From: Candidatus Aenigmatarchaeota archaeon
Lineage (GTDB): Archaea; Aenigmatarchaeota; Aenigmatarchaeia; PWEA01
Assembly: GCA_046539325.1 (NCBI GenBank)
Contig: JBKHHD010000002.1
Coordinates: 53,425 to 117,424 of the forward strand
Direction: 5' to 3'
DNA: 64,000 bases
Shown here: piece after piece, positions 2,482-7,523 of the stretch
Layout of the letters: every line of letters starts with the position of its first letter
How positions within the stretch are numbered: position 1 is the first letter of the stretch
Program-made: the position numbers and the translations under genes
Notes under the pieces: generated by a model
Told to the model about the DNA's origin: nothing
Seen by the model: only the letters and a program-made list of their open reading frames with translations
The model's database searches: none

Positions 2482-3295
2482 AAATTAATTGCGACCTCGG
2501 ACCGAAAGGTTCGAGAAAACCCGGCTGTATGCTGGAAACTCCACTCATACCAGGCTGCCGGAATTGTCCTAAGCTTTTTATCAAAAGCACGGGCAATGTA
2601 AGGTAGAGAGGTCTGGTCGTTGTGGACAATCAGCAGGGAAGCTCACTACTCTGACCTGAAAAGGTGAGGTATAGCCCCTCAGAGACTGCACGCCGGCCCC
2701 TAACGGAGCTGATTGGATGTCACAAAGCTACCTCAAGGGAATACTTCACGATGCCACGGAAAGGAAGTACACCTACCGAATTTCACAAAAGAACAAAGAT
2801 TTCATTGAAAAGCTGGCCGAAATGATTCGAGATCTGGGCAAAAAAGCCTGGATTTAAGAAGAAGGCAACCGAGGAATATACGTAGTGGAATTTAGTAAGA
2901 GTGGTCTCAAAAAGCAAGAAATCGAAACAAGACAAGAAAAAAGAGACTATATCCGTGGCTACTTCGACGCTGAAGGAAGCGTTCCAAGGAGTCCTGAAGT
3001 GCGACCTTACATTTACTTCGCACAACAGGACAAAAAAGACCTAAAGAAAGTGAAGAAATTCATTGAGGAGTTTTAAATTGAAACAGGCAAACTCCACAGA
3101 CCCAGTAAGGAGTCTGATCCAGATTACTGGAGATTTTACATCTCCACAAAGGATCACAAAAAATTTGCCAGAGAAATAGGCTCTTGGCATCCAAAGAAAA
3201 ATCAGCTGCTGAGGGAGATGAGACAGTCCACGCCTCGATGCGAGTCGGGGTGACACTTTCAAAGTGTCCGAACACCATTATGGTGTGAGCATGTG
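2482..3295 (+). mobile_element. Group I intron in 16S rRNA at E. coli position 1498 (814 nt)
   Basis: Splits AAGTCGT|AACAAGG; P1 GTCGT/GCGAC with U-G wobble; terminal G; P3 CCGGC/GCCGG, P4 TGCTG/CAGCA, P7 GACTG/CAGTC. Confidence 0.93.
2717..3253 (+). pseudogene. Decayed LAGLIDADG homing endonuclease in intron P8 loop
   Basis: One frame with YLKGILHDAT and YIRGYFDAEGS motifs, broken by TAA at 2855 and 3074. Confidence 0.85.
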
Positions 3296-3336
<41 letters not shown>

Positions 3337-3385
3337 AATTCATACCAACTACAGGCTAAAATTTCGGGTTTCCTAAAGAACATAC

Positions 3386-3594
3386 GGGCCCGTGGTCTAA
3401 TGGCAATGCAGAACCGTGTTCCGATTTACGGTTTGCACCGGAATGACGTCGCCCTTGCAAGGCGAAGACTGTGGGTTCAAAAGAGACCACTTTGGAATGA
3501 AAACACTTTACTGAAAACGGAGTTTTCGTAAAGATCCAAGCTTCGTTTGAAATATTTTCCAAAGGGTTTTCTGGAATTCCCACCGGGTCCACCA
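3386..3594 (+). tRNA. tRNA-Ala(TGC) in ITS with D-loop (~3406-3443) and T-loop (3482-3577) introns, CCA encoded
   Basis: GGGCCCG/CGGGTCC acceptor, TCGCC-CT-TGC-AA-GGCGA; BHB at T-loop restores TTCAAAT. Confidence 0.9.
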
Positions 3595-3786
3595 GTACTG
3601 TTCGCGATTTTAGAAAGTTTTAAATAACTTCACTGTTACAGGACTTTTGAACCTGATACAGGCCTGATAAGATGACTGGAAAGTAAGACTTGAAGGATTA
3701 GTTGCTTACTTCAGTCTGTTCTTTTTCGTTTTGTTGTATAGTTTTAATGTGCAGCTCTCTACCGCAGGTAGAGGGTGAAGAGTGAT

Positions 3787-3866
3787 AAGGGACGATGAAT
3801 TGAGTTTTGTGAACACCCTTTGATCCCGAGAGGGAGATGATAGTAAGACGATCACAAGAGTCCCTT
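3787..3866 (+). ncRNA. Box C/D guide RNA in the 16S-23S ITS (predicted targets 23S U2552 and U1920)
   Basis: Terminal stem AAGGGAC/GTCCCTT, two K-turn motifs, 10- and 11-nt perfect complements to 23S obeying the D+5 rule. Confidence 0.85.
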
Positions 3867-3967
3867 GGATGAGCTGTTATACGTCAAGTCTTGGAAACTT
3901 ATGTTTCCAGTTTGAAATCCGAGAGGATTTCAAGACCCACCAGCCAACTAGGCTGGAATGGGTCTAT

Positions 3968-6922
<2,955 letters not shown>

Positions 6923-7067
6923 CCATGGACGCATTCCAGCCTGGGCTAAAGGTGGATCTTGAAATCAAGGAACACAAACTTAGAAACAGAGGTTTCCAAG
7001 ACTTGGCGTATAGCAGCTGAAGCTCTTTTCTCATAAGATTTAAATTGTTAGAATCAAATGTTCCTAC

Positions 7068-7523
7068 TGTGGTGAGCTGGAGAGGGACCACCGGGATAGT
7101 TTGGATGAGGTTGTTTTCCTTCACAGGAAACACCCTTGTATTCCCGGAGGAAGCTCCTCCCACCCGTTGTGCTGTAAAAGTGCAACGAGGCCCAGGCTCG
7201 CAAGAGTCCGTCCTGAGAGGGAACGGAACAGGGAACAGAAACGATACCCCCGCGCTGGAGCGTTGAAAGCTGAGAAGGCACGGAGGGATGGAACGTACCC
7301 TGATCTGGGTGGTGCAAGACCAAATAGGCTCCGGGAAATGGATGTGCCTTGCACGTCGGTCTCTTGGAGCGGGTAGGTCGCTATTTGGAGTCCGTGAGGG
7401 CTTCAAACTTGGAAGCATCTGCTTCCGAGAAGATGAATGTCCCGAAGACCTGACATGGACGCGGACTTCGTCCACGTCGTTTTTGGGTCCGAACAGAAGG
7501 AGGGCTACTCCCAGCACACCACA
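7068..7523 (+). ncRNA. rnpB: RNase P RNA
   Basis: P4 halves GAGGAAGCTCCTCCCAC and AACAGAAGGAGGGCTAC, AGAAAC and GGTGCAAG motifs, terminal pairing TGTGGTG/CACCACA, TATA at ~7039. Confidence 0.9.

Follow-up and report, generated by a model that had tools for sequence, protein, structure and literature searches.

We analyzed a 64,000-nt stretch of the genome of a Candidatus Aenigmatarchaeota archaeon (contig JBKHHD010000002.1, positions 53,425 to 117,424; hereafter referred to as the window), which opens with an archaeal ribosomal RNA (rRNA) operon identified by Rfam. At positions 3787-3866, ahead of the 23S rRNA gene, lies an element that, judging from its sequence and those of its homologues, very probably directs methylation of the A-loop and helix 69 in the same 23S rRNA that it precedes. 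Its identification as a two-guide box C/D small RNA (sRNA) had been made in an earlier analysis of this DNA, based on the sequence alone (the sequence-only reading), and is supported by conservation upstream of 23S rRNA genes, by covariation of the stems and of guides with their targets, and by the presence of the C/D proteins. A C/D guide as such was to be expected, given that the organism is an archaeon, and box C/D sRNAs, including guides for position U2552, are ordinary in archaea. What sets this one apart is the conserved placement of the guide in the leader of the 23S precursor (pre-23S).

The element, all parts of which lie on the forward (+) strand, is arranged in the order stem, box C, guide, box D', hairpin, box C', 12-nt guide, box D and stem. 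In the terminal stem, AAGGGAC (3787-3793) forms the 5' strand and is paired with GUCCCUU (3860-3866) as the 3' strand. Enclosed by this stem are a kink-turn (K-turn) bulge, G3794-A-U3796, with box C AUGAAUU at 3795-3801 (together 3794-3801); an 18-nt C-to-D' spacer (3802-3819), of which positions 3809-3819 form the D' guide antisense to the A-loop; box D' UUGA (3820-3823); a hairpin, UCCC-GAGA-GGGA, that closes the C'/D' motif (3824-3835); a bulge with box C' AUGAUAG at 3837-3843 (together 3836-3843); a 12-nt D spacer (3844-3855), of which positions 3844-3854 form the D guide antisense to the 3' strand of helix 69; and box D AAGA (3856-3859). The stem, boxes, guides and K-turn anatomy listed in the sequence-only reading were each found exactly where they had been placed. 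Among 21 aligned homologues, UGA of box C is retained in 19, NUGA of box D' in 21, UGA of box C' in 18 and GA of box D in 19, with the two homologues that do not have GA at the box D columns carrying CUGA two columns away.

For box C/D definitions, the rule that the methylated nucleotide faces the fifth guide position upstream of the D or D' box (N+5), and spacers of 10-12 nt, we relied on PMC3608112, from whose K-turn rules the register of box C was also derived. In the C/D motif, sheared pairs are possible for G3797 and A3798 with A3859 and G3858. The C'/D' motif has a GAU bulge followed by G3839 and A3840 opposite A3823 and G3822; U3841 then faces U3821, and an A3842-U3820 pair stands in for the canonical G-C. 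Tandem G-A pairs are therefore possible in both predicted K-turns, and the hairpin at 3824-3835 is predicted to give a true K-turn at C'/D' in place of the usual K-loop. When the RNA was folded alone, the centroid structure (z = -1.8) formed the terminal stem as well as the internal hairpin and left the guides mostly unpaired.

The D' guide (GTGAACACCC, 3809-3818, followed by T3819) is a perfect 10-bp complement of positions 6579-6588, to which U3819 and G6578 add a G-U pair, and the D guide (TAAGACGATCA, 3844-3854, followed by C3855) is a perfect 11-bp complement of positions 5943-5953. The fifth nucleotide upstream of box D' is A3815, which faces U6582, and that upstream of box D is A3851, which faces U5946. 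Both pairings, with N+5 falling on these two uridines, had been proposed in the sequence-only reading and hold without a single mismatch. The first target (6578-6588, + strand) is helix 92, i.e., the A-loop, and the second (5943-5953, + strand) is the 3' strand of helix 69. In an alignment with an annotated Escherichia coli 23S sequence, U6582 coincides with the first U of the A-loop motif UGUUC and U5946 with the C that follows UAUAA in helix 69; we take these counterparts to be U2552 and C1920 of the standard E. coli numbering. The position names rest on motif alignment together with this standard numbering, since counting directly along the E. coli strain's sequence gave values displaced by 1-3 nt. 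Both positions had been described in the sequence-only reading as known 2'-O-methyl sites. This is correct for 2552, where Um2552 is reported to be made by RlmE/RrmJ, with a homologue in Haloferax volcanii (PMC2584109), whereas for 1920 it applies only to bacterial TlyA, the reported source of Cm1920 (PMC7317525). Helix 69 of the window (5934-5948) has the loop AACUCUG; its 1910:1920 pair is A:U in the window's order and G:C in the other families of the class.

Complementarity over 10 nt is by itself weak evidence. The 625-nt spacer upstream of the 23S gene contains four 10-mers complementary to the rRNAs, compared with a mean of 1.95 in 2000 shuffles, and the earlier argument that two guides would be unlikely to meet known sites by chance is weakened to that extent. 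It is the combination of features that is specific. A search of both strands of the genome (1.43 Mb) for a strict motif, made up of an RUGA box, a spacer of 10-18 nt, a 9-mer antisense to the A-loop and in the N+5 register, and NNGA, gave a single occurrence, at the 3787-3866 site. A scan for the full architecture yielded 18 loci against 4 in the reversed genome, with perfect guides in both slots at this locus only, and a half-mer scan of the genome gave 6 candidates against 5 in the null. No further candidates were found in a crude genome-wide search confined to stem-bearing C/D sRNAs with rRNA targets. The element might still be regarded as a chance resemblance or as a decaying, functionless relic, given that such 10-nt complementarities are expected, that its boxes are degenerate and that Rfam returned no match over the sRNA either at the gathering threshold or at E up to 10. 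The uniqueness of the strict motif in the genome speaks against this, and the conservation, stem covariation and guide-target covariation described below contradict it, making such an origin extremely improbable.

To determine how widely the element occurs, genomes of the same class, all of them metagenome-assembled, were compared. By BLAST, the element was detected in two same-genus genomes and in one of another family, each time before the 23S gene, and these three sequences together with that of the window's own genome (G000) were used to build a covariance model, R1. This model matched 21 of 151 genomes sampled from the class. All 21 matches were on the same strand, approximately 50-130 nt upstream of the 23S 5' end. 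Of the 21 loci, only 7 had a 16S 3' end in the 1.5 kb ahead of the element, indicating that the element travels with the 23S gene and not with the spacer as such. The location given in the sequence-only reading is thus upheld as regards the position upstream of 23S, but not as regards the 16S-23S spacer per se. An assembled 23S 5' region was present in 95 of the 151 genomes, and in families f1, f3, f4, f9, f19 and f25 the genomes with an R1 match were the same as those with a 23S 5' region.

The strict A-loop half-mer pattern was detected in 29 of the 151 genomes, compared with 2 for a backwards control, which again argues against a chance resemblance. It lay within about 320 nt upstream of a 23S match in 25 of the 29; two further occurrences were on another contig and two were in genomes with no 23S match. 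By either criterion, R1 or half-mer, the element was found in 33 of the 95 genomes with a 23S 5' region, representing 11 families. In 20 leaders taken from genomes without a default R1 match, the strict motif occurred 8 times in sense and 0 times in antisense orientation, and looser versions were recognized by eye in several more. A pattern scan of public genomes matched 16 archaeal and 24 bacterial records, the former being labelled Candidatus Aenigmatarchaeota archaeon (10), uncultured archaeon (3), archaeon (1), Nanoarchaeota archaeon (1) and Halorubrum (1). R1 confirmed 15 of the 16 archaeal loci, the exception being Halorubrum, and none of the 24 bacterial loci. These labels fit the placement of the window's organism in the Aenigmatarchaeota, a DPANN group. 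From these sequence comparisons, the placement in the pre-23S leader is conserved, and it is this placement that is the unusual feature.

Covariation was examined in an alignment of 21 sequences. All 7 pairs of the terminal stem and all 4 pairs of the internal hairpin (11/11) had changed on both sides, the hairpin variants being UCCC/GGGA, CCCC/GGGG, GCGC/GCGC and GGCU/AGCC. Paired cells amounted to 94.8%, compared with 60.4% in shuffles (0/500 reaching the observed value) and at most 51.3% in slid controls. Given the size of this effect and the visibly different stem sequences, both helices can be considered secure. Covariation in related operons had been named in the sequence-only reading as a check on its proposal, and was found both in the stems and in the guides, which change together with their targets.

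Target sequences were retrieved from element-bearing genomes, helix 69 from 17 and the A-loop from 13. In 8 genomes of the window's order, helix 69 reads UGAUCGUCUU with U at 1920, and N+5 of the guide is A in 6 of these; in 9 genomes of other families it reads UGACCGUCUU with C at 1920, and N+5 of the guide is G in 5. The D guide, which is the less conserved of the two, was well matched to helix 69 in 11 of the 17 relatives. The crossed N+5 combination was never seen among guides that still pair with helix 69, while the unrelated D guide of G045 and G114 has A at N+5 opposite C. For the A-loop, the target GGUGUUCAC and the guide core were invariant in 13 genomes, with A:U at N+5 in 13/13, and at position 2549 the window's genus has a G:C pair where family f19 has A:U. 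Loss of complementarity in relatives had been named as grounds for rejecting the guide; complementarity at the A-loop was kept in all 13 of these genomes, but at helix 69 only in the 11 of 17 just mentioned.

In family f22, the A-loop itself departs from the otherwise highly conserved UGUUC, reading UGCCC in two genomes and UGUCC in four (L110 3258-3384, L115, L116, L118-L120), and so differs at the equivalents of U2554 and U2555. Guides of this family place G opposite C2555 in 4/4 genomes for which both partners are known, and opposite C2554 in one of two. No A-loop guide was visible in 3 of 8 f22 leaders, all from one genus. Across these sequences, the covariation of guides with targets is the strongest evidence for guide function.

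The proteins with which such an RNA would assemble are encoded in the genome. The genes for fibrillarin (273 bits) and Nop5 (202 bits) are neighbours that share a contig, that for L7Ae (107 bits) is located on a different one, and all three proteins score above the Pfam cut-offs. By contrast with 14 of 14 control genomes, this 91%-complete genome contained no match to PF01728 (FtsJ), the family of RlmE and TlyA, which agrees with the absence of rlmE and tlyA that the sequence-only reading had proposed to check. Um2552 of the A-loop is among the few nearly universal rRNA modifications. In a genome without an FtsJ/RlmE-type enzyme, the ribonucleoprotein formed on this sRNA (sRNP) is the likely route to Um2552, and it probably substitutes for RlmE here. 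Within the class, 133 of 151 genomes gave some PF01728 match, of which only two were full-length and strong (200 and 187 bits). The remaining matches scored at most 66 bits and mostly covered part of the model, and we infer that they represent other methyltransferases. The two genomes with a real FtsJ (G058 and G075) are without an assembled 23S 5' region. Full-length FtsJ/RlmE-type genes are thus rare in the class, while all 14 reference bacteria and archaea have one.

A number of observations weigh against the element being a working guide. Its boxes are degenerate: only GA is canonical in box D (AAGA), and box C reads AUGAAUU, so that, relative to the consensus RUGAUGA and CUGA, box C is off at 3 of 7 positions and box D at 2 of 4. 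The C-to-D' spacer measures 18 nt, compared with the 10-12 nt typical of archaea, and this could lower the activity of the D' guide. Both spacers are 12 nt in two same-genus relatives, and the D' spacer is 12 nt in most homologues; the former points to a 6-nt insertion beside box C in the window's genome. Positions 3600-4000 of the window are identical in two public DNA assemblies, possibly its source, which argues only against an assembly error in the 18-nt spacer. The stem and the hairpin abut the boxes, so that formation of a K-turn requires bulging of the GAU nucleotides. Alignment A3, having been fitted to the structure of the model, is biased in favour of it, and since the relatives are not independent, each covariation may correspond to one or a few events. 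The helix 69 guide was degenerate (G006, G018, G123, G143) or different (G045, G114) in 6 of 17 relatives, and in the same-genus genome G006 the mismatch falls at N+5 itself. Of the 95 genomes that have a 23S 5' region, 62 did not yield the element by either strict criterion. Finally, the absence of FtsJ concerns an incomplete metagenome-assembled genome, and weak partial FtsJ-like matches are common in the class.

We next consider the setting of the element within the operon. The genome, which is metagenome-assembled, comprises 715 kb in 10 contigs and contains a single 23S match. A tRNA-His gene (685-758) lies ahead of the 16S rRNA, which starts at 1053 and has its true 3' end, GGATCACCTCC, at 3326-3336 (Rfam and sequence); the 23S rRNA occupies positions 3963-6928 and the RNase P RNA positions 7072-7519 (both Rfam). 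The real 16S-23S spacer therefore extends from about 3338 to 3962 (625 nt). The sRNA ends 96 nt upstream of the 23S rRNA and directly adjoins the 23S processing helix, the 5' strand of which (3867-3974) co-folds with the 3' strand (6918-7023, both on the + strand) at -134.7 kcal/mol. Positions 3872-3898 and 6992-7018 match as reverse complements, and pairing is nearly unbroken over approximately 100 bp, beginning at the nucleotide directly after the sRNA (3867). As the helix starts at this nucleotide, there is no room for a promoter between them, and the sRNA must lie on the same transcript as the 23S rRNA. No canonical bulge-helix-bulge motif could be placed with confidence in the co-fold of this helix. 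A possible K-turn at its base, formed by GGAUGAG (3867-3873) and CUGA (7017-7020), was rejected because the CUGA is not kept in same-genus relatives. Further upstream, a TATA/B recognition element (BRE)-like sequence, AAAGTTTTAAATAA (3612-3630, + strand), is invariant in three same-genus spacers amid variable sequence, and AT-rich boxes resembling it were seen by eye upstream of relatives' leaders. This putative internal promoter of an sRNA-23S unit may allow transcription apart from the 16S rRNA.

On this arrangement, a dual-guide box C/D sRNA would be transcribed within the pre-23S leader. The two K-turns, C/D and C'/D', would serve as binding sites for L7Ae and as the platform for assembly of Nop5 and fibrillarin. 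Pairing of the D' guide with the A-loop would allow fibrillarin to 2'-O-methylate U6582 (E. coli U2552), and pairing of the D guide with the 3' strand of helix 69 would direct methylation of U5946 (E. coli 1920). Cotranscription would supply one guide per 23S molecule, present on the nascent transcript ahead of targets that lie 2.1 and 2.7 kb further on. Once the processing helix has been cleaved, the sRNP might also act in trans. We infer each of these steps, i.e., RNP assembly, methylation, and action in cis or in trans, from the features described above.

In its most elaborate form, which we put forward tentatively and hold to be rather doubtful, this proposal is one of self-modification in cis. 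The leader C/D RNP would assemble first, stay tethered via the processing helix, and act on the nascent molecule that carries it at a fixed 1:1 ratio, methylating its helix 69 and A-loop and assisting their folding. Such a device would have replaced RlmE and be ancestral to the class; in some families it would have expanded into leader arrays of guides, with its C'/D half merging into the processing stem. Another account, which agrees with the guide interpretation as to the identity of the RNA, treats it as an ordinary guide acting in trans, which is expressed from the rRNA transcript, released and directed at other pre-23S molecules, its position having no mechanistic meaning. This has a real claim to consideration, though we would not call it probable. 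Archaeal C/D sRNAs are described as maturing from nearly any transcribed context, the RNP shielding the body while the flanks are trimmed, and the guide in the intron of pre-tRNA-Trp, first proposed to act in cis, was later reported to act in trans or intramolecularly (both PMC7994747). It is, however, less easily reconciled with the linkage to the 23S 5' end, which is kept across 11 families, with or without a 16S upstream, and which argues for selection on position.

The element could also serve through pairing alone, as a chaperone or tether whose leader RNP aids pre-23S folding or processing without methylation, in the manner of U3- and U8-type box C/D RNAs. In keeping with such a role, the element abuts the processing helix, its two targets are 640 nt apart in one molecule, its D box is degenerate and its D' spacer is 18 nt long. 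In family f17, moreover, what follows a C'-like box is the processing stem's own 5' strand, which pairs with the 3' trailer, and dual guides have been suggested to act as chaperones (PMC4644070). Pairing alone, however, needs no particular register, yet that of N+5 on U2552 is kept in 13/13 relatives, and a genome without a protein enzyme for a near-universal modification nevertheless keeps fibrillarin. We consider a function restricted to pairing improbable, although chaperone and methylation roles are compatible with one another.

Additional C/D-like features were observed in the leaders of relatives. In family f22, eight leaders (L090, L092, L093, L098, L100, L121-L123) carry an extra C/D unit, located after the A-loop guide and ahead of the processing stem. 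This unit has a canonical-looking UGAUGA..CUGA, an A-rich loop and GAUGAAG..UUGA/AAGA, and its D guide, GCGAACUGUC, is antisense to GACAGUUCG in 23S domain V. With this unit beside the A-loop guide, f22 leaders appear to be arrays of guides. In families f17 and f22, a conserved AUGAnnn box directly precedes the 5' strand of the 23S processing stem, as in L114 (G128; leader 326-350, trailer ~3472) and L110 (321-342 and 3701-3722). In f17, CUGA follows the processing-stem strand, so that the strand occupies the place of a D guide. The counterpart in the window is the conserved AUGA ahead of the processing stem, within GGAUGAG at 3867-3873. The f17 stretch beginning CATAGGCGAG after the C'-like box was considered as a second guide and rejected, since it pairs with the 3' trailer and hence belongs to the processing stem.

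Several other features of the operon were noted. The Rfam match to the 16S rRNA ends at 2526, short of the true 3' end at 3326-3336, which places an insertion of about 760 nt near its 3' end (2527-3290). This insertion contains broken LAGLIDADG homing-endonuclease frames, e.g., ..YLKGILHDATE.. and ..IRGYFDAEGSV.., in separate short open reading frames (ORFs). The spacer contains a tRNA-Ala(UGC)-like element at approximately 3386-3597. Its acceptor, GGGCCCG/CGGGUCC, includes G3:U70, its anticodon loop reads CUUGCAA and its 3' end carries CCA. The D-loop and T-loop regions hold insertions whose lengths vary across three same-genus genomes, and the element was missed by both ARAGORN and Rfam. At 3647-3693 there is a second, weaker C/D-like layout (UUGAACC, 10 nt, CUGA, UAAG, AUGACUG, 11 nt, UUGA), the D'-loop-C' core of which is kept in two same-genus relatives. 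It had no rRNA target at one mismatch or fewer, and is followed by a T-rich run (3715-3745). Directly upstream of the sRNA, positions 3750-3786 form a hairpin, CUCUCUAC-CGCA-GGUAGAGGG, followed by UGAAGAGUGAU; the motif GCAnCUCC..hairpin..GGGGUGAAGAGUG was seen again in leaders of distant families, e.g., L090, L092, L093, L098 and L100. Beyond the 23S rRNA and on its strand, the RNase P RNA gene (7072-7519) starts about 50 nt past the processing helix. Its score of 85.7 bits exceeds the gathering score of 84, 448 nt being matched to a model of 288 positions, and the gene may be cotranscribed with the rRNA operon.

The element can be compared with several known systems. In archaea, sRNAs are predicted to target U2552 in 5 of 7 species, and helix 69 is a predicted hotspot (PMC4644070). 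With the archaeal box C/D guides for U2552, the present element shares the type of RNP, the dual-guide layout, the N+5 rule and the target, but it differs from them in its location in a pre-23S leader, its real C'/D' hairpin, its degenerate boxes and its lack of an Rfam family. RlmE (FtsJ/RrmJ) and TlyA act on the same target nucleotides, but are stand-alone enzymes, whereas an RNA-guided enzyme is proposed here. The genomic contexts of C/D sRNAs given in a 2021 review (PMC7994747) are ORF overlaps, tRNA-linked genes, tRNA introns and intergenic regions, and rRNA spacers are not listed there. The C/D guide in the pre-tRNA-Trp intron is likewise carried in the precursor of the RNA that it modifies (PMC7994747); it resides in a tRNA intron cut at a bulge-helix-bulge, with targets a few nt away, whereas the present element belongs to the leader of a 3-kb rRNA and precedes its targets by 2.1 and 2.7 kb.

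Two further RNAs are known from pre-rRNA spacers. The 16S-D RNA (Tang et al. 2002) consists of the ligated leader and trailer spacers of 16S rRNA and is predicted to adopt a C/D box-like structure, its in vivo role being given as unknown in PMC7038931. Both it and the present element are C/D-like and derive from pre-rRNA spacers. The 16S-D RNA, however, is formed by ligation of the 16S flanks, with no established methylation target in what PMC7038931 describes of it, whereas the element studied here is a contiguous two-guide sRNA beside 23S with conserved, co-varying targets. In Halobacterium, circular RNAs are reported to arise from the spacer upstream of 23S, with no C/D interpretation attached to them (PMC12558985). 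The sequence-only reading had called a guide within the very pre-rRNA that it modifies unusual. This agrees with the literature searched, which did not extend to supplementary sRNA catalogues such as Additional file 1 of PMC4644070, and in which no account was found of C/D sRNAs located in the rRNA spacers or leaders of archaea, or of any from DPANN archaea.

Taken together, the data point to a guide for the near-universal Um2552 that is wired into the 23S precursor of tiny-genome archaea without a dedicated enzyme. The arrangement allows the question of whether an rRNA-modification guide acts in cis on its carrier transcript to be asked directly, and would provide a natural model of how a minimal genome couples the supply of guides to rRNA synthesis. 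Pairs of guide and target that co-vary, including those of lineages that depart from the A-loop UGUUC, offer a rare comparative proof of guide function in uncultured organisms, and an Rfam model of the element would improve the annotation of rRNA operons in DPANN archaea.

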